DNA of 16,501 nucleotides from a virus (UHGV-0096653), one strand, 5' to 3'. Positions 1 to 16,501 are shown, counted from the first letter of the stretch. Translations and numbers: made by a program. The notes: generated by a model not told the origin, from the sequence alone.

Positions 1-589
1 CCCACTGGCGCTTTTTAGGGCTGAATACAACCGCATCAGGATGGCGAGTTAAAAAATCCTGTTCATCCGTCTGCGTGTCCGGTTGCGAAGCGTCCGGACG
101 AGAAGGGTTTTTTTCTGACGGATCATGTTTTGATTTTACTGACGGATCCCCGCCAGATTCTGACGGGTCAAAACTGGTTTTTTTGGTGGATTCCGACGCC
201 TCAAATTTTGAGGGGTCAATTTTTGACGCATCAGATTTTGACGGTTCAGATTTTGATGTGTCAGATTTTGACGGGTCAGAATCTGACAGTTGAGAAAATG
301 CCGCTGCCTGAAGCTTCGCAACGTTAAGCTGATAAACATTCGACGCATTGCGGTTACCCTGGCGACGCGCCTTACGCGTTAACCAGCCTTCTGCTTCCAG
401 CCGTGCGATAGCCGTTCTGACGGTACTCATCCCCGCGCCAATCTGACGGGCAATGGTTTCAATTGATGGCCAGCACACACCTTCGTCATTACTGAAATCA
501 GCCAGGCGGGCCATAATTGCCACGCTGGATAATTTCATGCCTGATGCAGCGCAACCATCCCATACATAGCCGGTTAATTTAGTGCTCAT
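1..589 (-). CDS. Phage replication initiator-like protein (lambda O-like role), 3' end beyond window
   Basis: Minus-strand frame open from ATG at 589-587 to the window edge (absent from ORF track because no stop is in the window). Translation starts MSTKLTGYVWDGCAASGMKLSSVAIMARLADFSNDEGVCWPSIETIARQIGAGMSTVRTAIARLEAEGWLTRKAR, a winged-helix DNA-binding N-terminus, followed by pentapeptide repeats (DPSKS-like) encoded by tandem 15-bp DNA repeats. Sits after cro/cII-like genes as lambda O does. Confidence 0.6.
   Translation of the reverse strand, partial: MSTKLTGYVWDGCAASGMKLSSVAIMARLADFSNDEGVCWPSIETIARQIGAGMSTVRTAIARLEAEGWLTRKARRQGNRNASNVYQLNVAKLQAAAFSQLSDSDPSKSDTSKSEPSKSDASKIDPSKFEASESTKKTSFDPSESGGDPSVKSKHDPSEKNPSRPDASQPDTQTDEQDFLTRHPDAVVFSPKKRQW
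201..290. repeat. Six tandem 15-bp direct repeats (consensus TCAGATTTTGACGGG), iteron-like; candidate origin inside the initiator gene
   Basis: Head-to-tail units at 201, 216, 231, 246, 261, 276; degenerate copies also at 128-182. Iterons embedded in the initiator gene is the lambda ori/O arrangement. Confidence 0.6.
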
Positions 590-598
590 GACCGACCT

Positions 599-937
599 CT
601 ATTTCCCTGAATTTACGACGAAACTGTTCGAGCGGACTGAAGCATTCATGTTCATAGCCTTCACGGAGGTAGATAACCCGTTGTGTTTCCGGCTCCCAAC
701 GAATGACTCTGACGGGCACTCCGTAGTGATCTTTGAACCAGCGGTTAACTTGTCGCAAAGGACTGTCTCCTTCTGCCGGTTGAAATCACCCACAGCCCAC
801 TCTGCAAAGCTGTGGGTTACAATTTCCCTGTCACCTGGTACATTCACTGCATAGCAATACTCCACCTTCGCTTTTCCACCCGGTACAGGAAGTGCAATCA
901 GTTGCGAACGACGGTAGTGTGTTGTTAAACTGTTCAT
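599..937 (-). CDS. Hypothetical protein (112 aa), translationally coupled to upstream CII-like gene
   Basis: ORF track; its ATG (937-935) overlaps the TGA (936-934) of the upstream gene as ATGA; same strand as the early operon. No recognisable motif. Confidence 0.4.
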
Positions 938-1524
938 GCGTTAGTTTCTCCACAACCAGAAGCAATCGACGCCACGACGCCCGGAGCTGCACACTCGCGG
1001 GCGTTACTCTTTTCTGGAGCGCAAAAGATTTTGTAGACCAGTGCTGCATGCTCCTGGAGCTTCGAAATTGACAGATACAACTCATCATTAATTGCTGTCT
1101 GCTCGTGTGGCTCCACTACCCCATCTTCGATTGCCGAACGAATCTGCTTTGAGTAACTCCCGATCTGTTCGATGACTTCCAGCAGGCGCTGGTTAATATC
1201 GGCGTTGTCCACATCCTCGACGTCAGGAAGAGACACAAAGACGCCATTTGCAGACTGCGCCACAGCATCAGCAATGAAGTGAGTGCCACCAGCACGCTGT
1301 AAAACCATTGCCCATCCCAGCGGGAAAATCTGATCGCCATCAGCACGAAGGCGGTTAAATAATGCGTTCTCTGTTACATCCAGCCAGTCAGCTGCTTCAG
1401 CGTAACCACCCGGCAACGTTGCGATAGTTTTTCTGACAGCTTTCACGTACCACTCAGGCTGTTTTTCTACTTTCCAGTGATGCTTACCCACGGCTATCTC
1501 CTTAAAACTGTGGTTACTTTCCAT
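934..1524 (-). CDS. CII-like early regulatory protein (possibly CP76/YdaT-type), 196 aa
   Basis: ORF directly downstream of the Cro-like gene in the same operon, the position of lambda cII or Rac ydaT. Family assignment is by position and general resemblance only; the annotated start overlaps the cro-like stop by 11 nt, so the true start may be internal. Confidence 0.4.
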
Positions 1525-1762
1525 CTGATAAGTCTTTAATCTTTTGAAAAATATCTGGACGTAATTTTTCTTTTGATACGCCAGTGGTCATTTCAATAAA
1601 TATCGAGAGCTTTGCAGGGGGACGCTTTTCTCTGTTCAACCAGTTCCAGACATGTTGTTGCTTTACTAAACGACCACTGCTGGCTGTGAGCTTCCGAGCC
1701 AATTCTGATTGACCACCAGCCAGAGCGATTGCCTCTGATAAGGCTAATTGCTCAGGTGTCAT
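1514..1762 (-). CDS. Cro-like HTH regulator (YdaS-like)
   Basis: 82 aa with HTH segment AIALAGGQSELARKLTASSGRL; divergent from the CI-like repressor; good RBS (AGGAGA) before ATG at 1762; consensus TATAAT -10 upstream on the minus strand. Confidence 0.7.
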   Translation of the reverse strand: MTPEQLALSEAIALAGGQSELARKLTASSGRLVKQQHVWNWLNREKRPPAKLSIFIEMTTGVSKEKLRPDIFQKIKDLSDGK

Positions 1763-1784: not shown

Positions 1785-1875
1785 GTAAAGTTGTTGATAA
1801 CTTCGATTATACAACTACAACAACTTTTATCACAACTTTTAGATGTTGGAAAGCTAAAACATAAAGTTGTAACCT
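1785..1875. promoter_or_regulatory. OR-like operator cluster with divergent promoters (PR-like for cro on minus, PRM-like for cI on plus)
   Basis: Repeated half-site AAGTTGT/ACAACTT at about 1788, 1811, 1820, 1833, 1864, including the imperfect palindrome AAGTTGTTGATAACTT. Minus-strand -10 TATAAT (complement of 1806-1811) with -35 TTGTGA (complement of 1830-1835), 18-bp spacer. Confidence 0.65.
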
Positions 1876-1899: not shown

Positions 1900-2586
1900 G
1901 TGAAAACATTGGCAGAAAGACTAAAAAGCGAAAGAGAAAAAGCAGGAATGAGTCAGGCGCAACTAGCTGAAAAAATTGGGCTTTCACAACAATCCGTAGC
2001 GAAAATCGAGAATGGAGAAACTCAACAGCCTCGGAAAATTAAAGAGATTGCTAAAGTGTTAGGGGTTTCTCAAAAGTGGTTGCAATTGGGCATTGAGGAT
2101 AACGCGTCTTTCCCAGACCTTGTTGTAAAGGAGGCTGAAAGTACAGCATTAGATCCTGACATTTTTGCAAACATTCCAGTCCTAGATGTCGAGTTATCAG
2201 CGGGTAATGGATGTTTGGCTGAAATAGTTGAATCAACTGTAGACTGGTTCCCGCTAAGAAGGATTGATTTAAGAAAAGCTGGTGTATGTGTCTCCAATGC
2301 AAAGATCGTAAAAATTTGGGGCAATAGTTTACTACCTGTACTTAACAATGGAGATTTTGTTGCTGTTGATGTTTCCCAAACGGTTCCTATTCGTGATGGG
2401 GATCTTTATGCCATACGTGATGGCGTATTACTTAGAGTTAAAATATTGATCAATTTACCTGACGGTGGTCTGATTCTAAGAAGTTTCAATAAAGATGAGT
2501 ATCCAGATGAAATTCTCACCTTCGAAGATAGGCGTTCCAGAATTCACGTTATAGGTAGAGTATTCTGGTCATCGCGCACTTGGTAA
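1900..2586 (+). CDS. CI-like phage repressor, N-terminal HTH plus C-terminal S24 (LexA-like) autopeptidase domain
   Basis: 228 aa; HTH MSQAQLAEKIGLSQQSVAKIENG; Ala-Gly cleavage site in ELSAGNG; Ser-Lys dyad context (WGNSLLP ... LLRVKIL); GTG start at 1900 preceded by GAGGGGG. Confidence 0.85.
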   Translation: MKTLAERLKSEREKAGMSQAQLAEKIGLSQQSVAKIENGETQQPRKIKEIAKVLGVSQKWLQLGIEDNASFPDLVVKEAESTALDPDIFANIPVLDVELSAGNGCLAEIVESTVDWFPLRRIDLRKAGVCVSNAKIVKIWGNSLLPVLNNGDFVAVDVSQTVPIRDGDLYAIRDGVLLRVKILINLPDGGLILRSFNKDEYPDEILTFEDRRSRIHVIGRVFWSSRTW

Positions 2587-4578: not shown

Positions 4579-5403
4579 ATGTCTCAGAACTTAGACGCAA
4601 CCGCAATTAATCAAATCCATGCCCTTATTTCTGCTCAGGGTGTTAATGAAATTATCAGTAAGATTGGTGCCGATGCTGTGGCATTGCCTGAGAATTTCCG
4701 CATTCATGATCTGGAAAAATTTAATTTAAATCGCTTCCGTTTCCGTGGTGCGCTTTCCACTGCCAGCATCGATGACTTTACCCGTTATTCTAAAGATCTT
4801 GCAGATGAAGGCACCCGCTGCTTTATCGATGCTGATAATATGCGTGCCGTCAGTGTACTTAACCTGGGTACTATTGATGAACCAGGTCACGCAGATAACA
4901 CCGCCACTCTCAAACTGAAAAAGACAGCACCGTTCTCTGCCCTGCTGTCTGTTAACGACGAGCGTAACTCCCAGAAGTCACTGGCAGAATGGATTGAAGA
5001 CTGGGCCGACTACCTTGTGGGCTTTGATGCTAATGGTGACGCTATTCAGGCAACAAAAGCGGCTGCGGCAGTCCGTAAAATCACGATTGAAGCAAACCAG
5101 ACCGCTGGTTTTGAAGATAATGACTTCAGCGGCAAACGCTCCCTGATGGAATCTGTCGAAGCGAAGACCAAAGACATTATGCCAGTGGCATTTGAATTTA
5201 AATGCGTTCCGTTTGAAGGTCTGAAAGAACGTCCGTTTAAATTACGCCTCAGCATTATCACTGGCGATCGTCCTGTACTGGTTCTGCGCATTATTCAGCT
5301 GGAAGCGGTGCAGGAAGATATGGCTAACGAATTTCGTGATCTGCTTGTTGAGAAATTCAAAGACAGCAAAGTAGAAACCTTTATTGGTACTTTCACCGCC
5401 TGA
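4579..5403 (+). CDS. yfdQ: YfdQ-like protein (DUF2303-type), 274 aa
   Basis: RBS GTGAGGA; length and operon position match yfdQ as recalled. Confidence 0.55.
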
Positions 5404-5530
5404 TTTCATTACTGCAAATGCCCCTGCGGGGGCATTTATGGAAACGTAATTAACTCAATAATCACCGGATGGTGAGGGCTTCCTTTTACCCAAACTCAGC
5501 GCGGTGCAGCGCATATACGTGGAGAACAAA

Positions 5531-6067
5531 ATGTCATTTATTAAAACTTTTTCCGGGAAGCATTTTTATTATGACAAGATAAATAAAGACGACATCGTGA
5601 TTAACGATATCGCGGTTTCCCTTTCAAATATCTGCCGCTTTGCCGGTCATCTTTCTCACTTCTACAGTGTCGCCCAACATGCGGTGCTTTGCAGCCAGCT
5701 GGTGCCGCAGGAATTTGCTTTTGAAGCGTTAATGCATGATGCAACAGAAGCGTATTGCCAGGACATCCCCGCACCACTGAAACGCCTTCTTCCTGACTAT
5801 AAACGGATGGAAGAAAAAATAGACGCCGTAATCCGTGAGAAATACGGGTTACCCCCAGTTATGAGTACGCCCGTGAAATATGCCGATCTTATCATGCTGG
5901 CAACCGAACGCCGCGATCTCGGGCTTGATGATGGCTCTTTCTGGCCTGTACTGGAAGGCATCCCGGCAACAGAGATGTTCAACGTGATTCCACTGGCACC
6001 GGGCCATGCCTACGGGATGTTTATGGAACGTTTTAACGAGTTATCGGAGTTACGCAAATGCGCATGA
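5531..6067 (+). CDS. yfdR: HD-domain phosphohydrolase, YfbR/YfdR-type 5'-deoxynucleotidase
   Basis: 178 aa from ATG 5531 (GGAG RBS). HD signature: H in FAGHLSHFYSVAQHAV and HD in ALMHDATEAY. Confidence 0.7.
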   Translation: MSFIKTFSGKHFYYDKINKDDIVINDIAVSLSNICRFAGHLSHFYSVAQHAVLCSQLVPQEFAFEALMHDATEAYCQDIPAPLKRLLPDYKRMEEKIDAVIREKYGLPPVMSTPVKYADLIMLATERRDLGLDDGSFWPVLEGIPATEMFNVIPLAPGHAYGMFMERFNELSELRKCA

Positions 6068-6420
6068 ATGTTTTCGAAATGGAAGGGTTTCTTCGCGGGA
6101 AATGTGTACCGCGAGATCTGAAAGTGAACGAAACAAATGCTGAGTACCTGGTACGTAAATTCGACGCGCTTGAAGCTAAATGTGCGGCACTGGAAAACAA
6201 AATAATACCAGTGTCAGCTGAACTGCCACCAGCAAATGAAAGTGTTCTGTTATTTGATGCTAACGGAGAAGGCTGGCTGATTGGCTGGCGTTCTCTCTGG
6301 TACACCTGGGGACAAAAAGAAACCGGAGAATGGCAGTGGACATTTCAGGTCGGGGACCTTGAAAACTTCAATATCACTCACTGGGCAGTAATGCCAAAAG
6401 CGCCGGAGGCTGGAGCATAA
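6058..6420 (+). CDS. yfdS: YfdS-like protein (DUF551-type), 120 aa
   Basis: Start overlaps the yfdR-like stop; length and position match. Confidence 0.5.
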   Translation: MRMNVFEMEGFLRGKCVPRDLKVNETNAEYLVRKFDALEAKCAALENKIIPVSAELPPANESVLLFDANGEGWLIGWRSLWYTWGQKETGEWQWTFQVGDLENFNITHWAVMPKAPEAGA

Positions 6421-6773
6421 TGACCACATTTACCAATAAAGAACTGATTAAAGAAATCAAAGAACGAATCAGCAGCCTAGAGGTTCGAGACGATATTGAG
6501 CGCCGTGCTTATGAAATTGCTCTGGCATCGCTAGAAGAGGAGCCGGTGGCATGGCTGCATTCAGAAAATGGCTTAGGTATTCCGGCAATAACGAGGAGTA
6601 AAAACATTGCTGACAGTTGGTTATCAAAGGGCTGGTATGTTCAGCCGCTATATATAGCCAAGCCAGTGCCGGTGGTGCCAGATGCTCGTCCGTCTTTAAA
6701 TAATGGCATAGTCGGCTTTGATGAAGGCTGGAACGCCTGCCGCGCCGCCATGCTTAATGGGAAAGGAGAGTGA
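6420..6773 (+). CDS. yfdT: YfdT-like hypothetical protein, 117 aa
   Basis: TAATG stop/start overlap with previous gene; position in operon. Confidence 0.45.
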   Translation: MTTFTNKELIKEIKERISSLEVRDDIERRAYEIALASLEEEPVAWLHSENGLGIPAITRSKNIADSWLSKGWYVQPLYIAKPVPVVPDARPSLNNGIVGFDEGWNACRAAMLNGKGE

Positions 6774-6774
6774 T

Positions 6775-7038
6775 ATGGCAACTTTAACAAAAAAAGAACG
6801 GGCATGGTTGAACGAATTACAGGACGTTCTTGATCGCTGCCCATCACCGAAAAAAATTGGTTTTTACACCATTGGCGATAAAAGCATTTACCTGTATGAC
6901 CTGCGCCGCATGGATGAAATCATGGAGGCTCTTGATAATCGTTCGTCAATGGATTGGTGTGTTGCTGTCCATGATATGAATGCAGGGTTTGATGAAAAGA
7001 TTTTGTTCCCCTCATCAGTTGAAAGCACAGCAGGATAA
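6775..7038 (+). CDS. Small hypothetical protein (87 aa), last gene of the operon
   Basis: Strong RBS AAAGGAGAG before ATG 6775 (track start 6718 is a less likely upstream extension); followed by a terminator. Confidence 0.5.
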   Translation: MATLTKKERAWLNELQDVLDRCPSPKKIGFYTIGDKSIYLYDLRRMDEIMEALDNRSSMDWCVAVHDMNAGFDEKILFPSSVESTAG

Positions 7039-7073
7039 GGACCCAGCAAATATACACAACCTATAAAACACTA

Positions 7074-7098
7074 AAGCGCCTCAGGGGCGCTTTTTGTT
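7074..7098 (+). terminator. Rho-independent terminator
   Basis: AGCGCC-TCAG-GGGCGCT stem-loop followed by TTTTT. Confidence 0.7.
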
Positions 7099-7200
7099 TG
7101 CACAAAAGTGCACAAATTTGCACAATTTTTTTGAACGACTTTTTACCCTTCCGGCCCGCATGGCGGCTGGATCCGTCAAGGATCCGTGCGTGCACAAAAA
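7099..7200. repeat. Phased TGCACAA repeats and GGATCCGT direct repeat; candidate protein-binding array (packaging or regulatory site)
   Basis: TGCACAAAAG / TGCACAAATT / TGCACAATTT at exact 10-bp period (7099-7128); a fourth TGCACAA at 7191; GGATCCGTCAAGGATCCGTG at 7168-7187. Confidence 0.5.
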
Positions 7201-7496
7201 AACGCGTTTTTTCTGCGCGCAGGTGACGGGGGAACAGCCCGCGTTTCAGGGGGTAAATAGCATTCCCTGAACGATGTCGCAGAGACACAACAGAATGGCC
7301 ATATTTCTCACGCTGAGCATGAAAAAGGCGTGAGGGCTTTTGATTTGATGGGGTGAAAGGTAAGGCCGTCAAAATCGCACTGAGGCAGCGAGAACATGCA
7401 GTCAACGCGGTGGAATTGCGTAAGAGTCTGACCGTCGATGGTGGCGATAAACTGGAAGGCGTCGTGAAATTATCTGATTGATACAGGAGCTGGAGA

Positions 7497-7525
7497 GCCG
7501 GGGCATAAATTTTTTATGCCCCGGC
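7497..7525. other. Near-perfect 29-bp palindrome / strong hairpin
   Basis: GCCGGGGCATAAA-TTT-TTTATGCCCCGGC; no flanking U-tract on either strand, so not a canonical intrinsic terminator. Confidence 0.5.
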
Positions 7526-7624
7526 GAAGCAGCAGACAAGCGAAGCGCGTCAGCGATACGGCACCTTGCCGACCATACTTCATAAGTGCAAAATACGAGC
7601 AAAGAAATCAATGGAGGCTGTCTT

Positions 7625-8149
7625 ATGGTCATTAATTACAAGCAGTTAAGAGAAAAACGGGAGCAGGTAAAGGAGAGCTTTCGCCGCAATGAAGATCTGA
7701 CCCCGCTTGTACGCCTTGCCCAGGGCATTGTTGATGCTTATGAAATCTCGCTGGAGCTGCCATCACAGACCTGGACAGATAGCGACGGTAATCGCCAGCA
7801 TTACGTTTCATGCGGACTGGAAGCAGCCGAAGGATTTCGCAGAATGCCTTTATCCCAGATCCCTGCCGCTACCCCCAAAGCACGGGGCAGCAATGATGAG
7901 CGAAAACTGACTTTTAGTATTGAAACGGTGGTTGACGACACACCTGGCGAAGTCGCGTTCGTGCACACGCCTGTTTCGATCGCAATGTATAACGATGAAA
8001 TACAGGTTCGCGTTAATAATAATATCGTGCCACTTAAAGAAGGTAATTCACCCTACACCACCGTTTGTGAAGCCATTCAATATTACGTTCTCTCTGAAAT
8101 TGATAATCTCAAGCCTGACGGCACCCAGAAAATGGTTCAACTCTGGTAA
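7625..8149 (+). CDS. Orphan hypothetical protein (174 aa), function unknown
   Basis: GGAGG RBS 7 nt before ATG 7625 (track start 7586 is a GTG extension); ends at a bidirectional terminator shared with the portal gene. No motif recognised. Confidence 0.6.
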   Translation: MVINYKQLREKREQVKESFRRNEDLTPLVRLAQGIVDAYEISLELPSQTWTDSDGNRQHYVSCGLEAAEGFRRMPLSQIPAATPKARGSNDERKLTFSIETVVDDTPGEVAFVHTPVSIAMYNDEIQVRVNNNIVPLKEGNSPYTTVCEAIQYYVLSEIDNLKPDGTQKMVQLW

Positions 8150-8181
8150 AAAGGACAGCCCCATCACGGGGCTGTTTTTTC
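8147..8181. terminator. Bidirectional rho-independent terminator between the orphan ORF and the portal gene
   Basis: CAGCCCC-ATCAC-GGGGCTG stem-loop with TTTTTT on the plus strand and a T-run on the minus strand; the portal stop codon lies in the loop. Confidence 0.7.
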
Positions 8182-9210
8182 ATCAAGAAGAGCATAAGAG
8201 TTAAAACGGATCACCTCTTCGCCAAGCCAGTCATTGATGTGCTTCATAGCCTCCATGACGGGCATCAGCTCGTTAATTGCGTAAACCCGCGCTGCCTTCT
8301 CCACATCGCCAAACGCACTTTTTTCGCCCGGCATCGCCCCCATCAGTTGCGGCGGAACGCGGTGCGCAGCCAGCACATCATCACGGGATGCCGCCTTAAC
8401 ATTCATGAATTCATCTTTTGCGGTGATCTGCTGGAACGGCAAAATTTGCACCCCCTCTTTGCCCCCGTTGGGCGCATGAATGAGCACGTTTTTAAACGCA
8501 CCACCACCACGTGCCCCCTGTAGCGTTTCTTTCAGGGAGTCCATGCTTTCGCGGTTTACCTGCGCTGCACCGATGTAGATGATGCACCCGGCGTGGGATC
8601 CGTTGTCGTAGTACAGTTTTCTGAACATGTCCGCCGAATGAGAAAGGCTGGCCGAGAGTAATGCGCCAAGATATTCCGGCATGCCGTAGATTTCCTGGTT
8701 AATATCCGGATTCATCAGGTGGCACACTTTGCCAGGACGAAACTGAAACGCGTCCTTGCCATCCTGCACATACCACCATGATTCAAGATCGCTTCCGCGT
8801 CGCATGTATTTCGCCAGTGCGTGCCGTAATTTAAGCGGTTCGCCGAGCATATTGCTTCGAAGCTCAAGGTATGCGTTACCGAACACAAACCAGTCCAGCG
8901 CCAGCGCCGAGAAATCCTGCCGGGAAAGCAGCGGGTGCGGGATGTAGCAACCGAGTAATACATTGCGCTTAAAGTAAAGCGCAGACTGATGCCAGGACGT
9001 TTGCCGGGCAGCTCTTGCCAGACCGTACCAGTCCACCGGTGTTTCATACCACCGCCCGTTATCAGCACAGTACATATTGTCCAGCAGGTCATGCCCGGTC
9101 AGGCGATAAGGACCATCAAATGTGAATGCACTGAGCGATGATTCTTTCCTGAGCGCATCAGCGAGATCAATGCGTGAACTCATGCGCACTTTTTTATTTT
9201 TTCTGCTCAT
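8164..9210 (-). CDS. Q: P2-type portal protein (gpQ-like)
   Basis: 348 aa; size and position immediately downstream of, and overlapping, the terminase large subunit on the same strand, as in P2 Q-P. Confidence 0.8.
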   Translation of the reverse strand: MSRKNKKVRMSSRIDLADALRKESSLSAFTFDGPYRLTGHDLLDNMYCADNGRWYETPVDWYGLARAARQTSWHQSALYFKRNVLLGCYIPHPLLSRQDFSALALDWFVFGNAYLELRSNMLGEPLKLRHALAKYMRRGSDLESWWYVQDGKDAFQFRPGKVCHLMNPDINQEIYGMPEYLGALLSASLSHSADMFRKLYYDNGSHAGCIIYIGAAQVNRESMDSLKETLQGARGGGAFKNVLIHAPNGGKEGVQILPFQQITAKDEFMNVKAASRDDVLAAHRVPPQLMGAMPGEKSAFGDVEKAARVYAINELMPVMEAMKHINDWLGEEVIRFNSYALLDEKTAP

Positions 9211-10961
9211 CAGAACTCCATAACCGTGAAACGCTCGTTTTCTCCTTCGCCGCCAATTGGTTCGTTAATGACAGCAAGCATGGTTGCCCACGCAAGGTCG
9301 CCGTGGCTGATCCCCCTCGCGCGGTCCGTTTCGTAAGTGATAAAGCCGCCCGGTGTTTTCACCTTACGCACGGCGTTAAAGGCTGCGACCAGCTCGCGTT
9401 CGGCGCGATCGTATTCCCACCGCCCGGCGCGCATTATTTGCAGCATTTTCAGTACCAGCGACCGTTTTGATGACAGCGTGAAGGTGTACGGAATAGCAGC
9501 AGGGAAAAACCGTTTCACTATCTGATAAACAGCCTCCCCGTTCCCGCCTGTCACATCAATGCCGATGTGTTCCACGTTGTAGCGACACGTGAACTCTTCA
9601 ATGACTCTGGCCTGTTCTTCAAACTCCAGCCCCTGAACGCGTCGCGTCTCCACCGTTCGAAAACGGCCTCCAGGAACAGCCGGAGGAACCACCACGGACA
9701 CAGCGCCGCTGTCGCCGTTTCCACTGCTGCCGTTTGCGTCATACCCAATCCATACCGGACGATTCCCCATCGGGCGGGGAGCAAAAGGTTTCCAGTCTTT
9801 CCAGTCGTCGTATCCGTCAACACCACAGCCAATCAGGATATTCAGGTTAAATGCCGATTCCCCTTCGCGGACAAACTCACACATATAGAGATTGAGGAAC
9901 TCGTCTTCGGTGTTTTCATCACGAATTTCATCAATATCGGTGTGTTTCCAGCCGTGATTAACCACATCTTCCAGCGTGACAATTTGCCGCCACGTCCGGT
10001 CAGGGCAGATAAGCCCGTTATGCAGCGTTTTCCAGTCCACAGAAAAACGCTGGCGTTTATGCGAGGCCTTTTTCTCGTTCCAGCGGTCGCCGTTCCAGTA
10101 GGCGTATGCCTCGTGCGTTTCGGTGGATGGCGTGGAGAAGTAGGTGCGCCGCAGTCCGCTGAGGGTTGCCATAGCGCCAGCCACCTTGCGCAGTTCAGCA
10201 AAGCGACTGACCCAGAAAAATTCATCAAAATAAAAATTGCCCGTGTAGGACTGTGCCGTCGCAGCAGAAGTACCAAGAAAATGCAGCTCTGCGCCGTTGG
10301 AGAGGATGATTTTATCGCCCCCTTTCAGCTCCACATCAACTTCAGATGCAGCCTCCTGAATAATGCTTTTAAACTGGAACGCCTGACGACGCGACGCAGA
10401 CAAAAAAATCTGGTTACGCTGGTAAGGTTGCGCCACATCGTCACGCAGCGCCATCAGCAGTGCTTCCTGAGCAAAATACCAGGTCGCCCCAATCTGTCGG
10501 GATTTCAGGATCATCCTGTTACGTATCCCGGCCTCCCTGCAAAGGGTCAGGGAGTCAAACCAGCCCCGCTGATGCCACTCCAGCCTGCTGATGATTTTTT
10601 CCCGCAGTGCGGCAATCTGTTCCGGCGTGAAATGATTTTTGAGTTTTTTCGCCCGGCTTTTCTTTCCTGTGGCCGTCGCATCCGGCTGGCCATCATGCAG
10701 TTTTTTAAGCTGCCGGGTCAGCAGGTCTATTTCCTTGAAGTCACCACCTGTTTTATTCTGTTTTTCAGTAAGCTGGATGAGGCGCGAATCGATGGACTGC
10801 GTGACACGCTGCACGGGTGGCGTTTCATCCCACTGGTCGCGTTTTTTCCACGCATAAATCGTGTTCGGGTTTATTCCCATCAGACGTGATATTTCTGCGG
10901 GCGGATAACCCTGCCAGTAAAGTTGCCGCGCACGCTGGCGCACAAAAGCGTCCTGAATCAT
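9210..10961 (-). CDS. P: P2-type terminase large (ATPase) subunit (gpP-like)
   Basis: 583 aa; N-terminus MIQDAFVRQRARQLYWQGYPPAEISRLMGINPNTIYAWKKRDQWDE typical of P2-family gpP; divergent from the O-N-M-L operon. Confidence 0.85.
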   Translation of the reverse strand: MIQDAFVRQRARQLYWQGYPPAEISRLMGINPNTIYAWKKRDQWDETPPVQRVTQSIDSRLIQLTEKQNKTGGDFKEIDLLTRQLKKLHDGQPDATATGKKSRAKKLKNHFTPEQIAALREKIISRLEWHQRGWFDSLTLCREAGIRNRMILKSRQIGATWYFAQEALLMALRDDVAQPYQRNQIFLSASRRQAFQFKSIIQEAASEVDVELKGGDKIILSNGAELHFLGTSAATAQSYTGNFYFDEFFWVSRFAELRKVAGAMATLSGLRRTYFSTPSTETHEAYAYWNGDRWNEKKASHKRQRFSVDWKTLHNGLICPDRTWRQIVTLEDVVNHGWKHTDIDEIRDENTEDEFLNLYMCEFVREGESAFNLNILIGCGVDGYDDWKDWKPFAPRPMGNRPVWIGYDANGSSGNGDSGAVSVVVPPAVPGGRFRTVETRRVQGLEFEEQARVIEEFTCRYNVEHIGIDVTGGNGEAVYQIVKRFFPAAIPYTFTLSSKRSLVLKMLQIMRAGRWEYDRAERELVAAFNAVRKVKTPGGFITYETDRARGISHGDLAWATMLAVINEPIGGEGENERFTVMEF

Positions 10962-11115
10962 TGCTCCCCCTGAGTAATTACAGGAAGATTACCCGCGCGC
11001 GAAACCGTTCTCCTTAACCCCCTGCTCTGACTGTTTTCTTACAACAAAAGCCCTTTGTATCTGCCTGTTACGCTTTGCCATCATGACTGAAGAACCAGTC
11101 AGAGGGGCAAAAGCT
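10962..11115. promoter_or_regulatory. Divergent late-promoter region between P and O (P2 PP/PO equivalent)
   Basis: Position only; no clean TGT-N12-ACA activator dyad could be confirmed by eye. Confidence 0.35.
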
Positions 11116-11952
11116 ATGGCTAATGAAAAAAAGACATCCCGCAAAAAGTTTCGCGTGGCTGTCTCCGGATCAACTGTTGATGGCCGTGAAATCAGTCCGG
11201 TGCATCTGCGTGAAGCCGCCGAGAACTTCAACCCGGATGTTTACGCTGCCCGCGTGAACGTTGAGCACTATCTCTCGCCATGCCCGTCAAGCGAATTTTC
11301 CGCAATGGGCGATGTCACCGCACTGAGTACGGAAGACATTACGGAAGGTCCGCTGGCCGGACGTACTGCGCTGTATGCAGAAATCGAACCGACCGAGCGC
11401 ATGAAGCAGCTTGTCGCGGACGGCAAGAAAATCTATTCCAGTATCGAACTGCACCCGCAGTTCTCCGTTAACGGGCGCGCCTATCTGGTCGGGCTGGCGA
11501 TGACCGACACCCCGGCAAGCCTGGGCACTGAGCGCCTGAAATTCACGGCACAGCAACGTCAGGCGGTAATGACGTTCAACAGTGTCCAGGGTGAAGCGCC
11601 GCTTATCTCCGAAGCCATCGAGTCTGAAATCATCGAAATGGCAGAACAACGCCAGGAAGAAGGCACCCAGTGGTTTAACCGCGTAATGGGGATTATTGGC
11701 CGTGGCCGCAAAGCGGATGACGCCAGTTTTTCCCGCATTCAGGAAGCGGTGGAAGGCGTTGCAACGTCACAGGCCGACATTATCGACCGTTTTAATGTGC
11801 TGGAAACCCGCCATCAGCAGGACCGCCAGAAAATCACGTCACTGAACACAGAGCTGACAGCATTGAAGGAAAAACTGCGCACGCAGGACGGCGATCCGCA
11901 GAACCGCTTCACCGCAACGGGCGCAGCCTCCGACCAGCTGGCTGACTTCTGA
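11116..11952 (+). CDS. O: P2-type capsid scaffolding protein (gpO-like)
   Basis: From ATG 11116 (GAGGGG RBS): MANEKKTSRKKFRVAVSGSTVDGREISP... resembles the recalled P2 gpO N-terminus (MAKKVSKFFRIGVEGDTCDGR), and LVGLAMTDTPASLGTE matches LVGLAVTDDPASLGTE. Confidence 0.8.
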   Translation: MANEKKTSRKKFRVAVSGSTVDGREISPVHLREAAENFNPDVYAARVNVEHYLSPCPSSEFSAMGDVTALSTEDITEGPLAGRTALYAEIEPTERMKQLVADGKKIYSSIELHPQFSVNGRAYLVGLAMTDTPASLGTERLKFTAQQRQAVMTFNSVQGEAPLISEAIESEIIEMAEQRQEEGTQWFNRVMGIIGRGRKADDASFSRIQEAVEGVATSQADIIDRFNVLETRHQQDRQKITSLNTELTALKEKLRTQDGDPQNRFTATGAASDQLADF

Positions 11953-11975
11953 TAAGACAAAGGAGCAAATTTTTT

Positions 11976-13028
11976 ATGAATCTGGTGATGTCAGATATTA
12001 CCCGCAACAAGCTGGGTTGCTATATGGCGCAGCAGGCGTCGCTTAACAATATCCCGGTATCTGCACTGGTATCGCGATTTACCGTGGAACCCGCGGTGCA
12101 GCAGCGTTTTGAAAACGCCTCAAAGGAAAGTACCGAATTTACGAAAAGAATTAACGTGATCGGCGTGACCGACCAGAAAGGCGAAAAAATCCTCCTGGAC
12201 ACCACCGGGCCAATTGCACGCACGAATAGCAGTTATGACGGCATCAAACGCCGTAACCCGAATAACGTGATCGATATGAAGTCTCGTCAGTACCAGTGCG
12301 AACAGGTGAACTACGATACCTTTATTTCGTACCCACAGCTTGATACCTGGGCGGCCCACAGCGATTTTCAGTCCCGTATCAGTACACAGATCGCCCGGCA
12401 GGTAGCGCTTGATCGCATCATGATTGGCTTTAACGGCACATCCCACGCCTACGAGTCTGATTTTCACACCAACAAGCTGCTTCAGGACGTTAACGTGGGC
12501 TGGCTGGAGCACATCAGAACCGATGCCAGCGAGCGCGTAATGAATGACGTGACGCTGACCTCCCGCAACATGGACAACACTGTGGCGCACGCGGGTAAGT
12601 ATGCGAATGCCGATGCTCTGGTACAGGATGCGCGCTCATCCCTGCTGGATGAATGGCACAAGGAAGCTGACGACCTCGCGGTGATTATGGGGCGCAACCT
12701 GTTTAACTCGCTGCGTCTGCCCGTGCTGAACAGCATCAGCGGCCAGAATCCCAATGCGGAATTACTTGCCGGGCAGCTCATCCTGTCATCGCGCACCATT
12801 GGCGGGCTGGGCGTGTTCCTTGCGCCGTTCTTCCCGGATGCAACGATGCTTATCACCTCGTTCAACAACCTGTCGATTTACTGGCAGAAAGGTTCAATGC
12901 GTCGCCTGATGAAAGACGAGCCGGAATACAACCGCATCGCCACCTACCAGTCCATCAATGACGCTTATGTCGTTGAAGACTATGGCAAGTGCGCAATGAT
13001 CACTGGCCTGAAGTTCGCCGACAGCTAA
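11976..13028 (+). CDS. N: P2-type major capsid protein (gpN-like)
   Basis: 350 aa; motifs shared with recalled P2 gpN: FTVEP, IMIGFNG (IMAGFNG), GWLE, NLSIYWQ (NLSIYY), YVVEDY. Confidence 0.85.
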   Translation: MNLVMSDITRNKLGCYMAQQASLNNIPVSALVSRFTVEPAVQQRFENASKESTEFTKRINVIGVTDQKGEKILLDTTGPIARTNSSYDGIKRRNPNNVIDMKSRQYQCEQVNYDTFISYPQLDTWAAHSDFQSRISTQIARQVALDRIMIGFNGTSHAYESDFHTNKLLQDVNVGWLEHIRTDASERVMNDVTLTSRNMDNTVAHAGKYANADALVQDARSSLLDEWHKEADDLAVIMGRNLFNSLRLPVLNSISGQNPNAELLAGQLILSSRTIGGLGVFLAPFFPDATMLITSFNNLSIYWQKGSMRRLMKDEPEYNRIATYQSINDAYVVEDYGKCAMITGLKFADS

Positions 13029-13037
13029 TCAACTCAC

Positions 13038-13056
13038 GGCGGGCATCATGCCCGCC
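13038..13056 (+). other. Intergenic perfect stem-loop between N and M
   Basis: GGCGGGCAT-C-ATGCCCGCC; no U-tract, so likely an mRNA processing/stability element rather than a terminator. Confidence 0.4.
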
Positions 13057-13073
13057 TGTAACGGAGAGAAAAA

Positions 13074-13874
13074 ATGATTACTCCTGCACAACAACACTGG
13101 CAGAACGTGATGGCACAGCGCGCAGGCCAGGCGAATGAAGGTGTGGACCACGCCGCGCGTACCGCGCATGAAGAGGTGCTGTATCGTCTGCGTCTGGCAC
13201 AGGCCAGGCTAAAGGGCGTACAGGCCAGAAGCGCGAAAGCCGCCATCAAAAAAGAGTTGTTGCCGGACTTTTCCGGCTGGATTGAGGGAACGCTGGAGAC
13301 TGACGGCGGGCAACAGGACGAAGTAATTGCCACGCTGATGGTGTGGGCGATTGACTGCGGCGATCTTCCGCTGGCGCTGCGTATTGGTGCATATGTGGTC
13401 CGTCACAACCTCATCATGCCGGATAACTTTGGCCGTACTGCTGCCACGGTACTGACCGAAGAAATCTGCAACCCGGTACTGACGCAGGCCGGGACGGATG
13501 CCGACGCGGATTTATCCGCCTTTATCGAACCACTGGACACACTTTGGGAAATTGTCGCCAACCAGGACATGCCGGACGAAGTGCGCGCCAAATTATGCAA
13601 GGCGTGTGCCTTTGCCCGTCGTGGCCTGACCGATGCAGACAACATGGCCTCATCACTGAAGCTGCTGCGCGAAGCGATGCACCTGAACCCGAACGCAGGT
13701 GTGAAACGCGAGATTGCAACCCTTTCCCGCGCCCTGAAAAAAGCCGATTCCGCAGCCGCACCAGAAGACGCCAGCACACCGCAGGCGCAGGACGAAAGCA
13801 GCAAAAGTAAAAAGACAACGCAGAAGCCTGCAACACGAAAAACCACCGCGACGCAGAAGGCAAAGCGCGGTTAA
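13074..13874 (+). CDS. M: P2-type terminase small subunit (gpM-like)
   Basis: 266 aa; MITPAQQHW... and DMPDEVRAKL match recalled P2 gpM (MTSPAQRHM..., DMPDEVRAKL); basic C-terminal tail. Confidence 0.8.
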   Translation: MITPAQQHWQNVMAQRAGQANEGVDHAARTAHEEVLYRLRLAQARLKGVQARSAKAAIKKELLPDFSGWIEGTLETDGGQQDEVIATLMVWAIDCGDLPLALRIGAYVVRHNLIMPDNFGRTAATVLTEEICNPVLTQAGTDADADLSAFIEPLDTLWEIVANQDMPDEVRAKLCKACAFARRGLTDADNMASSLKLLREAMHLNPNAGVKREIATLSRALKKADSAAAPEDASTPQAQDESSKSKKTTQKPATRKTTATQKAKRG

Positions 13875-13890
13875 CGACTGACCCCGTCAG

Positions 13891-13962
13891 CGGGCGGCGT
13901 GCGCGGTGTTCCGGTTTGACTCCGTGACCGTTTACACCGCGCACCCACCGCCCGATTTTTTC
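13891..13962 (+). terminator. Long imperfect hairpin plus T-tract between M and L (possible intra-operon attenuator)
   Basis: CGGGCGGCGTGCGCGGTGT ... ACACCGCGCACCCACCGCCCG followed by ATTTTTTC. Confidence 0.45.
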
Positions 13963-13975
13963 AGGAGTGAACCCC

Positions 13976-14470
13976 ATGAGTATGGTTGCCAGAACTAACC
14001 CCGGCCCCGCAGAGGACGACATCACCGACACCGATGATGGCGATACCCGTATTTCAGCGGGTGCATTCTGGCCGGATATTGTGCTGCGCGAGCTGCGTCT
14101 GGCGGTACGACTGCCGGGCCGCGTGACCACCTCCCGCCTGCTGCATACCGCCACCGGGGCCATAGCACACGTTACCCGCGAGCTGGAAGCATGGCAGCAG
14201 GAACAACAGGCGGCTGGCTATCAGACGCTGGCCGATGTTCCGGCCCCTGTAATTAACGGAGAAAGCGTCAATCTCTGGCACTGGCGCAATGCTGTTTATA
14301 CCGCCACACGCGCCCTGATTCTGGAGCGTTACCGCGATGCGGACACAACGGACAAGGGCGACCGCCGGGCGGACGCACTGGATATACAGACATCGGATTT
14401 GTGGCGCGATGTGAGCTGGGCCATCTCTGACATTCTGGGACGACCGCGAATGTTTGCGGAGCTGTGCTGA
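13976..14470 (+). CDS. L: P2-type head completion/stabilisation protein (gpL-like)
   Basis: 164 aa from ATG 13976 (GGAG RBS); LADVPA..INGESV and ELWRD resemble recalled P2 gpL (LADVPADDIDGESI, ELWRD). Confidence 0.75.
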   Translation: MSMVARTNPGPAEDDITDTDDGDTRISAGAFWPDIVLRELRLAVRLPGRVTTSRLLHTATGAIAHVTRELEAWQQEQQAAGYQTLADVPAPVINGESVNLWHWRNAVYTATRALILERYRDADTTDKGDRRADALDIQTSDLWRDVSWAISDILGRPRMFAELC

Positions 14471-14670
14471 TGAAAGTGAAGGCACTGGAAGGCGACACCG
14501 TGGATTCGCTCTGTTTCCGGTACTACGGCACGACACAGGGCGTCACCGAAAAGGTGCTGGATGCCAACCCCGGACTCTGTCAGCAGGTATTTCTGGACGC
14601 CGGGCAGGAAGTGGAGATGCCGGAGCCGGAGAAGAAGAAACGAGAAATGATTCAGTTGTGGGGGGAGTAG
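14470..14670 (+). CDS. X: P2 gpX-like small protein (LysM-like tail protein X)
   Basis: 66 aa MKVKALEGDTVDSLCFRYYGTTQGVTEKVLDANPGL resembles recalled P2 X (MKTFALQGDTLDAICVRYYGRTEGVVETVLAANPGL); ATGA overlap with L. Confidence 0.8.
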   Translation: MKVKALEGDTVDSLCFRYYGTTQGVTEKVLDANPGLCQQVFLDAGQEVEMPEPEKKKREMIQLWGE

Positions 14671-14672
14671 CA

Positions 14673-14996
14673 GTGAGCACCATTCAAACAGGGATCACAG
14701 AGCAGGTTATTGCGTGGCTCTTTGACCACCTGCCAACGGTGTATGCAGTAGGCGCGGCTGTCAGCATTTCCGCGCTGATGAGTCTTTATGACGGACGAAC
14801 ACTGGTTCAGACCGTAACGGGATCGCTGGCGTGCGGCGTTCTTGCCATGGCCGTGGCCGGGTCGCTGCGCTTCTTCGGGATCCCTGAGGATGCAGTGACG
14901 TTTTTTGGTGCCTCAATCGGTTTTATGGGCGCAGAGAAAGCACGCGACAAGGTTATTGCAATATTTGATCGCAGGGTGAAGGAGAGGAACGAATGA
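14673..14996 (+). CDS. Holin (three predicted TM segments)
   Basis: GTG start after GGGGGAG; hydrophobic segments PTVYAVGAAVSISALMSLY, VTGSLACGVLAMAVAGSL, AVTFFGASIGFMGA and a charged C-terminus; directly upstream of the endolysin with ATGA overlap. Confidence 0.65.
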   Translation: MSTIQTGITEQVIAWLFDHLPTVYAVGAAVSISALMSLYDGRTLVQTVTGSLACGVLAMAVAGSLRFFGIPEDAVTFFGASIGFMGAEKARDKVIAIFDRRVKERNE

Positions 14997-15385
14997 GCAA
15001 CACATTTAAATTCAGCAGCCGAAGCGAAAAGAATTTGCAGGGTGTAAATCCTGATCTGGTGAAAGTGACCCGACGGGCGCTGGAAATCTCGGAAGTGGAT
15101 TTTGGTATCACCGAAGGATTGCGCAGTCGTTATCGTCAGAAGCAGCTCGTGACCACAGGCAAGAGCCAGACCATGAACAGTCGCCATCTCACAGGGCATG
15201 CCGTGGATGTTGTGGCTTATGTCGGCAACCAGGTGTCATGGGAATGGCCGCTGTACGAAAAAATCGCAGCAGCATTCAGACAGGCCAGCCAGGAACTGAA
15301 TATTCCGGTGGAATGGGGCGGCGACTGGAAGACCCTGAAAGACGGACCGCATTTTCAGTTACCACACGGAGCCTATCCGGCATGA
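14993..15385 (+). CDS. Endolysin, peptidase M15 family (L-alanyl-D-glutamate endopeptidase type, T5 Lys-like)
   Basis: 130 aa; zinc-ligand context SRHLTGHAVDV and C-terminal GPHFQL; overall resemblance to the recalled T5 endolysin. Confidence 0.75.
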   Translation: MSNTFKFSSRSEKNLQGVNPDLVKVTRRALEISEVDFGITEGLRSRYRQKQLVTTGKSQTMNSRHLTGHAVDVVAYVGNQVSWEWPLYEKIAAAFRQASQELNIPVEWGGDWKTLKDGPHFQLPHGAYPA

Positions 15386-15789
15386 AGCTCTGGCCCACGC
15401 TTGGCGTCGCTTTCCTTCTGATTGCCGCATGGGGAACATCCATGCGTCTGTCGTGGTCGCTGGGCCGGGAGAACGCCAGAAACGAAGCGCAGGCCAGCAC
15501 CCTGAAAAGTACCGTCGACACACTGAATATCATCAGCGCCGGGGTACAGGATATGCAGCAGGTGCTGGCTCAGCTCCGCGCGGAAAATCAGCAACGCAAT
15601 CAGGACGGAGAGGTAAGACGTGAACAGCTACGCAACGATATTGCAAAAGATGAATGCGCCCACGCTTTGCCTGACGCTCGTTTTACTGACAGGTTGCGCA
15701 GGCACGCAGAACGCGCCAGGGCCAGCGCCGTCAGTCCGGCTTATACCGCAGACGCTGACCATGCCGGTAACGCCTCCCCCCTTCCCTGA
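15382..15789 (+). CDS. i-spanin (Rz/LysB-like)
   Basis: ATGA overlap with endolysin; N-terminal TM (LWPTLGVAFLLIAAWG) then a Q/R-rich coiled-coil-like region; contains the o-spanin gene in another frame. Confidence 0.7.
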   Translation: MKLWPTLGVAFLLIAAWGTSMRLSWSLGRENARNEAQASTLKSTVDTLNIISAGVQDMQQVLAQLRAENQQRNQDGEVRREQLRNDIAKDECAHALPDARFTDRLRRHAERARASAVSPAYTADADHAGNASPLP

Positions 15790-15931
15790 CCCACCCACAT
15801 GGGGAAACCTCGGAATATGGGGCGACCGCCTTCTGGATGCACTGGAAACCTGTAACGCGGATAAACGGGCCATTGCTGAACTGGATAAGAGAATAGCCGA
15901 ACTGACACACCAGACGGGAGTAACACAATGA
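15620..15931 (+). CDS. o-spanin (Rz1/LysC-like outer-membrane lipoprotein), overlapping the i-spanin in a different frame
   Basis: GTG 15620 after GGAGAGG (alternative ATG 15650); lipobox LLTGC; proline-rich mature region PVTPPPFPDPP; ATGA overlap with downstream gene. Confidence 0.65.
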   Translation: MNSYATILQKMNAPTLCLTLVLLTGCAGTQNAPGPAPSVRLIPQTLTMPVTPPPFPDPPTWGNLGIWGDRLLDALETCNADKRAIAELDKRIAELTHQTGVTQ

Positions 15932-16501
15932 CCAGTAAGAACTTTGCACTGATTACAGCCATGACACAGGCTGAACTGACTCAAAAGGTGAATGAACATC
16001 TTGCGAAAGGGTGGCATCTTCAGGGGGAGACGCGGGTTGCCTACGAACCCGGCACCCCGTGGTATCTAATGCAGGCAATGGTGGCCGATGGCACTACAGA
16101 CATCTCACCTGATTCCCCCCAGCACGGCAGAGTGCCGGAGTGGTATTACGTGGTGGTACTTGCTGGTCAATCCAATGCCATGTCATATGGTGATGGAATG
16201 CCGCTGCCGGATTCTTACGATGCGCCACACCCACGCATTAAGCAACTGGCCCGTCGCAACACAGTGACTCCCGGTGGTAAAGCATGCGCATTTAACGACA
16301 TCATTCCGGCAGACCACTGCCTGCATGATGTTCAGGATATGAGCGCACTGAATCATCCGAAGGCAGACCTGAGCAAAGGGCAGTACGGCTGTGTCGGCCA
16401 GGGCTTACATATTGCCAAAAAACTGCTTCCGTATATCCCGAATAACGCGGGGATCCTGCTGGTACCATGCTGTCGTGGTGGTTCGGCATTCACCCAGGGC
16501 G
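15928..16501 (+). CDS. DUF1737 + SGNH-hydrolase sialate O-acetylesterase-like protein (NanS-p-like), 3' end beyond window
   Basis: Open frame from ATG 15928 to the window end; N-terminal segment MTSKNFALITAMTQAELTQKVNEHLAKGWHLQGE (DUF1737-like) followed by VVLAGQSNAMSYG, the GQSN catalytic-serine block of SGNH esterases. Confidence 0.65.
   Translation, partial: MTSKNFALITAMTQAELTQKVNEHLAKGWHLQGETRVAYEPGTPWYLMQAMVADGTTDISPDSPQHGRVPEWYYVVVLAGQSNAMSYGDGMPLPDSYDAPHPRIKQLARRNTVTPGGKACAFNDIIPADHCLHDVQDMSALNHPKADLSKGQYGCVGQGLHIAKKLLPYIPNNAGILLVPCCRGGSAFTQG

Follow-up and report, generated by a model that had tools for sequence, protein, structure and literature searches.

A candidate replication origin inside the O-like initiator gene of an SfII/e14-type lambdoid prophage

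Positions 107-290 of a 16,501-nt stretch of viral DNA (UHGV-0096653), which we call the window and whose coordinates are counted from its first letter, probably form the replication origin of an SfII/e14-type lambdoid prophage, situated in the linker-coding part of the prophage's own O-like initiator gene. An initial annotation had noticed tandem 15-bp repeats at 201-290 and proposed an origin embedded in its initiator gene, as in lambda ori/O. That proposal is well supported comparatively, by selection at the DNA level, co-variation of the repeated boxes with the N-terminal domain (N-domain) of the initiator and a lambda-O-like C-terminal domain (C-domain), but the array makes up no more than the variable upstream portion. 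Conservation is highest at 107-172, a segment outside the extent first given that holds three more boxes, the least stable DNA and two invariant GATC sites. The elements of the region are as follows.

1-589, minus strand: 5' part (196 codons) of the SfII/e14-type O-like initiator gene, with its ATG at 589-587, running off the left window edge
~290-589: whole N-domain, residues ~1-100
380-523, minus strand: winged helix-turn-helix, Pfam HTH_36 (PF13730), residues 23-70
191-290, minus (coding) strand: six 15-bp units and one partial unit, candidate initiator-binding boxes (iterons)
173-190, minus strand: A-rich spacer, codons 134-139 (STKKTS), the GAATCCACCAAAAAAACCAGT region, whose sequence varies among homologues in a codon-register comparison
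107-172, minus strand: putative conserved origin core of 66 bp, codons 140-161 (22 codons), with strong synonymous-site conservation
158-169, 137-148 and 113-124: three core boxes GAYCCRTCAG, spaced 21 and 24 bp
150-166: 17-bp imperfect palindrome CCGTCAGAATCTGGCGG in the core
107-148: least stable and most A+T-rich DNA of the gene, a candidate unwinding element within the core
60-106: GC-rich segment past the core (A+T dip to 0.33), with a 10-bp palindrome CGTCCGGACG at 91-100

Results

A 15-bp array in an O-like initiator gene

The six head-to-tail 15-bp repeats were borne out. Tandem Repeats Finder detected an array of period 15 at 201-280 (score 97; 5.3 copies with 80% matches) and multiples of 30 and 45 bp that reached as far as 287-295, and a scan for the 11-mer TCAGATTTTGA with up to two mismatches found six sites spaced by exactly 15 bp (201, 216, 231, 246, 261 and 276), three of them exact, as well as weaker copies at 123 and 153. 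Across the whole window the 11-mer matched 16 times, against 6.0 ± 2.7 expected from 200 dinucleotide-preserving shuffles, of which 0/200 attained 16; a separate repeat-finding run on the window recovered the same repeat family. On the plus strand the unit consists of TCAGATTTTGA and four variable nucleotides (general form TCAnnTTTTGA plus four variable nucleotides) and on the coding strand it reads TCT GAC nCn TCA AAA; a perfect 11-bp palindrome, TCAGAATCTGA, occupies 276-286. The in-phase units correspond to codons 104-133 (191-280), with the partial unit at codons 101-103 ahead of them, and are translated as SDPSK SDTSK SEPSK SDASK IDPSK FEASE, which confirms the D/S/K-rich pentapeptide repeat first described. 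The peptide pattern, (S/I/F)(D/E)(P/T/A)S(K/E) six times over, follows immediately C-terminal to the winged-helix domain. No match to the pentapeptide-repeat profile (Pfam PF00805, A(D/N)LXX beta-helix) was found in the window protein at E ≤ 0.01, and the five-residue periodicity is a by-product of the 15-bp DNA unit.

The placement of the repeats inside an initiator gene also held. The gene lies on the minus strand, and its DNA is ~95% identical to that of Shigella phages SfII and SfIV and many E. coli phages, where it is annotated as O protein, replication protein or 'primosomal protein'; the encoded protein matches PHROG 391, 'replication initiation O-like' (E = 5e-66), and PHROG 11896 (E = 2e-93). 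The full-length orthologue SfII_41 has 313 residues; of the C-domain, no more than the first ~20 residues (~175-196) fall inside the window. HTH_36 is matched with E = 2e-11 and 43.8 bits (gathering cut-off 25), with weaker Pfam similarities of the N-domain to GntR, MarR, DnaD_N and RP-C. A search of solved structures by sequence returned only marginal winged helix-turn-helix matches to MarR/PaaX, which are uninformative on the binding mode. A single-sequence AlphaFold2 (AF2) model of low confidence (mean predicted local distance difference test score 54.7), too poor for a fold search and used for a secondary-structure outline alone, places helices at residues 43-50 and 54-67, a beta-hairpin at 70-88 and a three-residue helix at 126-128, with no secondary structure past residue 128. 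The N-domains of the window protein and SfII_41 both match HTH_36 and not Phage_rep_O (PF04492), a family that lambda O matches at E = 6e-36 in the same scan type. The C-domain of SfII_41 is homologous to that of lambda O (31% identity over 216 residues, E = 7e-26).

Selection acts on the DNA and not on the peptide

We compared the gene in 12 phages and at 80 loci from different bacterial species, the loci coming from a scan of genome contigs; codon statistics of the units were drawn from 325 units in 79 distinct homologues from different species. A scan of viral contigs gave only loci with a 100% identical N-domain and served the analysis of copy-number polymorphism, not of divergence. The serine before the lysine (Ser4) is encoded by TCA in 297/325 units (91%), compared with 14% of the serine codons elsewhere in these genes. 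Similarly, the first-position serine (Ser1) is TCT in 223 of 245 cases (background 9% in these genes), lysine is AAA in 224/224 (background 60%) and aspartate is GAC in 82% (45% elsewhere). Within the unit, variation is found at the four nucleotides that separate the TGA from the TCA half-site, which leaves the 11-mer TCAAAATCTGA, one mismatch away from the perfect palindrome TCAGAATCTGA, as the conserved element.

Codon identity at conserved residues is 0.88 in the core and 0.41 in the N-domain. At pairwise-identical residues, third-position identity is 0.877 in the core versus 0.425 in the adjacent N-domain, and the core exceeds the N-domain in 2627 of 2628 pairs. The core valine is GTA in 73/73 homologues, three core serines are TCA in 60/60, 68/68 and 56/56, and the core aspartates are GAT in 74/74 and 66/66, the sequence GAT+CC being invariant in those homologues. 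Residue replacements in the core retain similar DNA (D/H is GAC/CAC and S/P is TCA/CCA). The box is used in other settings too. In phiP27 and a Citrobacter prophage, TTTsACCCkTCAGAATCTG occurs again in another frame and encodes VLTLQNL instead of FDPSDS; Erwinia and Mixta homologues carry the box in both orientations, GACCCCTCA encoding DPS and GAGGGGTCA encoding EGS; and Proteus and Providencia homologues have box repeats with a 24-bp period. In 255 kb of loci, 235 of the 238 matches to the box GAYCCNYCA fall within this 290-bp zone.

These data argue strongly against the array being a purely protein-level, low-complexity S/D/P/K linker that arose by replication slippage and has no cis role as DNA. 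Its composition is indeed typical of disordered linkers, its length is polymorphic by five-residue units and the low-confidence AF2 model shows no secondary structure past residue 128. However, synonymous positions are much more conserved than in the folded N-domain (0.88 vs 0.43), the codons chosen go against those the genes use elsewhere (TCA 91% vs 14%), the same DNA box in another frame or orientation encodes different peptides, and substitutions keep the DNA, not the chemistry (D/H, S/P). A linker of this kind without a DNA function is strongly disfavoured, and we hold it to be very improbable.

An RNA element in the early-right transcript, i.e. an mRNA structure controlling translation of the initiator or ribosome pausing, was considered because the coding strand folds well (-60 kcal/mol, z = -6.9 versus shuffles) and the first unit pairs with the core palindrome. 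This fold follows from the repeated palindromes, and its long-range helix is not maintained: a core G-to-C change (GAC to CAC) is present in 35 of 74 homologues, with no in-frame compensating change in the array because TCA to TGA would create a stop. Variable unit number changes the fold, and boxes in both orientations suit recognition of duplex DNA, not RNA. A search of the region against Rfam found no family, the one hit being a chance microRNA-model match far below threshold. With the strong z-score explained by palindromes and the key pair not maintained, RNA or cruciform structure was rejected, and an RNA role seems to us hardly credible. Nor was an overlapping gene found, stops being present in all five other frames (in four of them in 74/74 homologues, in the fifth in 36/74). 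Antisense open reading frames (ORFs) at 75-293 and 130-327 were rejected as genes, being by-products of the palindromic repeat.

Because synonymous sites are frozen, another frame, orientation or period is used in some lineages and these alternatives are excluded, the comparison indicates duplex DNA as the target of selection, with the pentapeptides as a tolerant by-product; as protein, they are a length-tolerant linker. The coupling of DNA-level and protein-level repeat constraints proposed in the initial annotation was thus correct, but the codon data show that the DNA signal dominates.

The conserved core and its easily melted DNA

In the family, the core has the consensus TTTsACCCGyCAGAATCTGGnGGGGATCCGTCAGTAAATTCAAAaCAaGATCCATCAG. 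A+T content, taken over 30 nt, peaks at 0.70 at gene nucleotides 451-480 (window 110-139), and the nearest-neighbour free energy at 109-138 is -34.7 kcal/mol per 30 bp, versus a window mean of -41.5 ± 3.7; the gene's A+T maximum and its stability minimum both fall at 107-140. The A+T peak followed by a GC-rich dip recurs in SfII, phiP27 and mEp460. The only two GATC (Dam) sites of window 1-700, at 121-124 and 145-148, lie in the conserved boxes to either side of the least stable DNA and are invariant across the family. No DnaA box (TTWTNCACA) was found anywhere in the window.

In many phages with this initiator, a gene for a Dam-type methylase lies downstream of it, one to three genes away. 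The invariant GATC pair and these nearby methylase genes hint at control of the origin by methylation or SeqA.

Unit number varies independently of the N-domain

Unit number changes in 15-bp steps among phages: there are four units in SfII, SKA5 and KpF5, five in Klebsiella phage 1 LV-2017, six in the window and in Klebsiella ST101-KPC2phi6.3, and seven in vB_EcoS-716R3. Homologues across species that bear this array type have 3 to 9 units (mode 4). The viral contigs with exactly the window's N-domain numbered 79; four units are present in 75 of them, five in three and six in one. In complete E. coli genomes almost all full-length copies among the matches listed measure 570 bp (four units), compared with 600 bp here. 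Repeat number had been put forward as a likely determinant of specificity or incompatibility; that it varies among related prophages (four, five or six units with identical N-domains, 3-9 in homologues) without any change in the DNA-binding domain argues against such a role. It is the box sequence, not the copy number, that changes together with the N-domain type.

The region at ~150-232 (codons ~119-146, comprising array, spacer and first core box) contains 81 nt identical to Klebsiella phage ST101-KPC2phi6.3 between flanks that are both SfII-like, which points to a recombination patch inside the putative origin and hence a mosaic array. E. coli K-12 strains match window 1-356 only, over 326 bp of the record, and several of these strains have two such loci in the genome. 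The K-12 array is two units shorter than the window's, consistent with truncated gene copies in cryptic prophages; these loci are presumably e14 and CPS-53.

Boxes and N-domain form an exchangeable cassette

With phages of the mEp460 type, in which the N-domain and the repeats are unrelated, the window has DNA in common (96.6%) at 1-116 only, and the restriction of this sharing to ~116 leftwards places a module joint there. Both mEp460 and HannyBb have the same C-domain as the SfII type joined to an unrelated N-domain, and at the equivalent spot they carry boxes of another sequence, 4-5 copies of TCCATnGGTTCAAAAyG in at least two frames, followed by an AT-rich stretch (ACAGAGAAT three times) and then the common GC-rich DNA. 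The HTH_36 N-domain and its boxes are in turn joined to several different C-domains, and the genes next to HTH_36-type initiators encode a lambda-P-like loader (PF06992), a DnaC/IstB-like loader or no loader; in SfII the next gene after the initiator encodes a PerC-like activator, with no P-like loader gene. On these comparisons the arrangement appears to be the classic lambdoid layout, in which an exchangeable specificity cassette (N-domain and sites) is joined within the origin to a C-domain that handles the helicase-loading partner.

Conservation at the nucleotide level shows that the DNA has a function, not which one, and the region might instead act in cis, through the initiator or some other protein bound to it, mainly for a purpose other than starting replication. 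It might autoregulate or attenuate initiator expression, exert copy control through titration or handcuffing, or exclude related phages; it might also be a conserved sequence at a module boundary, kept because crossovers at that point give viable mosaics. The region is indeed a recombination joint, as the mEp460-type sharing from 116 leftwards and the mosaic array show, and plasmids with part of the lambda replication region are reported to inhibit rep-lambda phages (PMC3349717). Yet the position, the order of boxes, AT-rich and GC-rich DNA, and the co-variation with the N-domain match those of lambdoid origins, no other candidate origin was found near the initiator gene, box matches are confined to this zone, and a pure boundary sequence needs no six to nine phased palindromic boxes. 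Moreover, these roles are compatible with origin function and do not exclude it. We consider it rather unlikely that one of them, and not replication, is the main role.

The ends of the initiators suggest a route to the host helicase. The O-only initiators (SfII-, LLS- and HannyBb-type), which belong to lambdoid modules with neither a helicase nor a loader gene, end in ...IP(A/E/P)GFRG, an end that lies outside the window, and the SfII_41 tail (L001:3618-3650) agrees at eight of nine positions with the C-terminal nonapeptide of E. coli DnaT, SQIPPGFRG. The tail is missing from sampled homologues beside lambda-P-like or DnaC/IstB-like loader genes, and the YeP1-type initiator has neither tail nor loader. 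We tentatively suggest, as a possibility that these termini raise, that O-only initiators act as mimics of DnaT, a restart-primosome protein, and in this way bring in the host helicase. No description of a DnaT-like tail motif in initiators was found in the literature.

Genomic setting

The order of genes upstream of the initiator is lambdoid (cI, pR-like promoter, cro-like gene, cII-like gene, DUF4222 gene, initiator). The features of the rest of the window are as follows.

599-937, minus strand: 112-residue YmfM-like gene (RefSeq E. coli annotation DUF4222), following the cII-like gene and preceding the initiator
934-1524, minus strand: cII-like gene
1514-1762, minus strand: cro-like gene
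1806-1835, minus strand: candidate pR-like sigma-70 promoter TTGTGA-18-TATAAT, from a consensus scan only
1900-2586, plus strand: cI
4579-5403: DUF2303 gene, SfII-like early-left region
5504-6067: YfbR-like phosphatase gene, SfII-like early-left region
6058-6420: DUF551 gene, SfII-like early-left region
6545-6725: junction
6725-16501: P2-like region
8164-9210, minus strand: P2-like portal gene
9210-10961, minus strand: P2-like large terminase gene
11083-13874, plus strand: P2-like scaffold, capsid and small terminase genes

The 112-residue gene at 599-937 had no Pfam match in the scan of the window, and its position is conserved in SfII, SKA5, KpF5, LLS and mEp460. The candidate pR-like promoter would transcribe the cro, cII-like, DUF4222 and initiator genes. 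The SfII-like early-left region ends without xis or int, and the contiguous lambdoid and P2-like parts were found in no complete E. coli genome of the collection; the junction could reflect tandem prophages, one prophage inserted in the other, or a hybrid.

DNA matching window 1-600 is present in 2114 of 5426 complete E. coli genomes and also in prophages across Enterobacterales. Typical enterobacterial copies also appear in records labelled Elizabethkingia phage EKP1, Vagococcus, Chryseobacterium, Martelella and Pseudomonas lundensis, with N-domain identities of 83-88% in three of them; contamination or mis-assignment of these non-enterobacterial records is likely.

Discussion

How initiation would proceed

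By analogy with lambda, the winged-helix N-domain would bind the repeated boxes, for which the ideal site would be the 11-bp palindrome TCAGA-A-TCTGA; a dimer might occupy each 11-bp palindrome, or a monomer each TCAGA half-site. Since a 15-bp period rotates adjacent sites by ~150 degrees, bound protein would spiral round the DNA. The six array boxes and three core boxes may then assemble an O-some-like nucleoprotein complex, which would destabilise or open 107-148, with the two GATC sites inside this stretch and the GC-rich segment beyond it as a clamp, and the lambda-O-like C-domain would bring in the host helicase. Transcription from the pR-like promoter would traverse the origin, as in lambda. 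Because the unit length is divisible by three, gain or loss of units leaves the frame intact. Unwinding and in vitro replication of lambda require no iterons but those closest to its AT-rich tract (PMC7466680); by this analogy, it is probably the invariant core that is indispensable, while the 15-bp array would serve as an accessory platform for loading.

Several points weigh against reading the region as an origin. The AT-rich stretch is modest (70% A+T over 30 bp, ~1.8 standard deviations below mean stability) and is interleaved with boxes instead of being separate from them. As the N-domain does not belong to Pfam Phage_rep_O, we infer its binding to the boxes from their co-occurrence alone. 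The out-of-frame box copy is limited to a single lineage, and the unit counts overstate how many independent observations there are, because duplication and recombination link the units of one gene as well as those of different genes; comparing the core over saturated pairs gives a firmer test. The window carries 196 codons of the gene only, and the lambdoid prophage is apparently cut off at ~6.5-6.7 kb by the P2-like element, so this copy may be inactive. Finally, the O-only replication module, present in 34 of 314 lambdoid phages, has been studied experimentally in none of them and its replication is described as 'not yet understood' (PMC12315714).

Comparison with known origins

In the lambda record, codons 117-145 of 299 hold four annotated 18-bp iterons, and an A-rich tract comes next (PMC7466680). 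Like lambda, the window family has its putative origin within the initiator gene at the junction of N- and C-domains (boxes at codons 101-159 of 313). It also has palindromic boxes in several copies, with an A-tract at the centre (lambda tccctCAAAAcgaggga; window family gTCAAAAtctgac), easily melted DNA on the C-terminal side of the boxes and, in the SfII orthologue, the lambda-O-related C-domain. The differences begin with the N-domain, which is HTH_36 here and Phage_rep_O in lambda, the two not being homologous. Whereas lambda has 18-19-bp iterons, the window has 15-bp units that abut one another, keep the frame and vary in copy number, and three further boxes come after them at intervals of 21 and 24 bp. 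Its AT-rich DNA is shorter and weaker than the lambda counterpart, includes boxes and bears the two invariant GATC sites, and SfII-type phages are without a P-like loader gene. The strict lambda O family (PF04492 together with lambda P) is not matched, although some homologues with the same N-domain have a Phage_lambda_P neighbour. Right beside the AT-rich tract of lambda (L177:561-579) lies TCGTCAGAGAATTCTGGCG, which is similar to the core palindrome CCGTCAGAATCTGGCGG, and the annotated lambda recombination points 39157/8 and 39165/6 fall at or beside it; the likeness may be due to chance or to a shared origin element.

The O gene of the Shiga toxin (Stx) phage 933W type has six iterons and encodes 13 extra residues, four of the six iterons being strongly bound and all being needed (PMC7466680). 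As in the window family, additional in-frame iterons in the ORF make the protein longer, and related phages differ in iteron number (PMC7466680), but this type has a lambda-type N-domain and 19-bp iterons. The 'P27 O' of PMC7466680 was rejected as an equivalent; it is lambda-like and not the HTH_36 protein L17 of GenBank AJ298298, so its binding data are not transferable.

The origins of P22 gene 18 and phage L gene 18, the latter with six imprecise 11-bp repeats, were inferred from in-gene repeats, which is standard reasoning (PMC8022706). These distantly related ori-binding proteins each have their own in-gene repeats (PMC8022706), as in the window family; unlike in that family, the box sequences and N-domains are of other kinds and a DnaB-type helicase gene (gene 12) adjoins. 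Gene 44 of phage LLS is a direct homologue of the window gene, with the same N-domain, four units and the same core. LLS was described with an O-only module (PMC12315714) and, like SfII, has no helicase or loader gene after the initiator, but its C-domain is TIGR02220-like, as in phiNP, unlike that of the SfII type; its origin is undefined in PMC12315714.

Iteron plasmids (RepA/RepE/pi, 17-22-bp repeats) resemble the window family in having a winged-helix initiator and direct-repeat arrays, and the N-domain has weak RP-C/DnaD_N similarity. Their iterons, however, lie outside the rep gene, usually with DnaA boxes, whereas here the boxes lie in the ORF and the window has no DnaA box, and one winged helix-turn-helix domain is found here in place of WH1-WH2. 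In the literature, we found no description of the box sequence, the peptide repeat or the SfII, SfV and e14 origins.

Implications

The layout is textbook and expected for lambdoid phages; what is new is this origin, as a candidate, in the very common O-only subgroup. A visually noticed repeat has been turned into a precise map of the putative origin, with a box consensus, a 66-bp core, a candidate unwinding element and two Dam sites. It is a clean natural case of dual coding in which a DNA signal constrains the protein sequence and not the reverse. The map would be of use for origin annotation, for lambdoid-type plasmids of new specificity and for studies of prophage induction in Shigella and in E. 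coli serotype-converting and Stx2c phages. If DnaT mimicry proves true, a sequence-specific origin of 15-bp iterons and a GATC-flanked core would be coupled directly to PriA/PriB/DnaT-DnaC or DnaB-DnaC, an initiation path not described for lambdoid phages.

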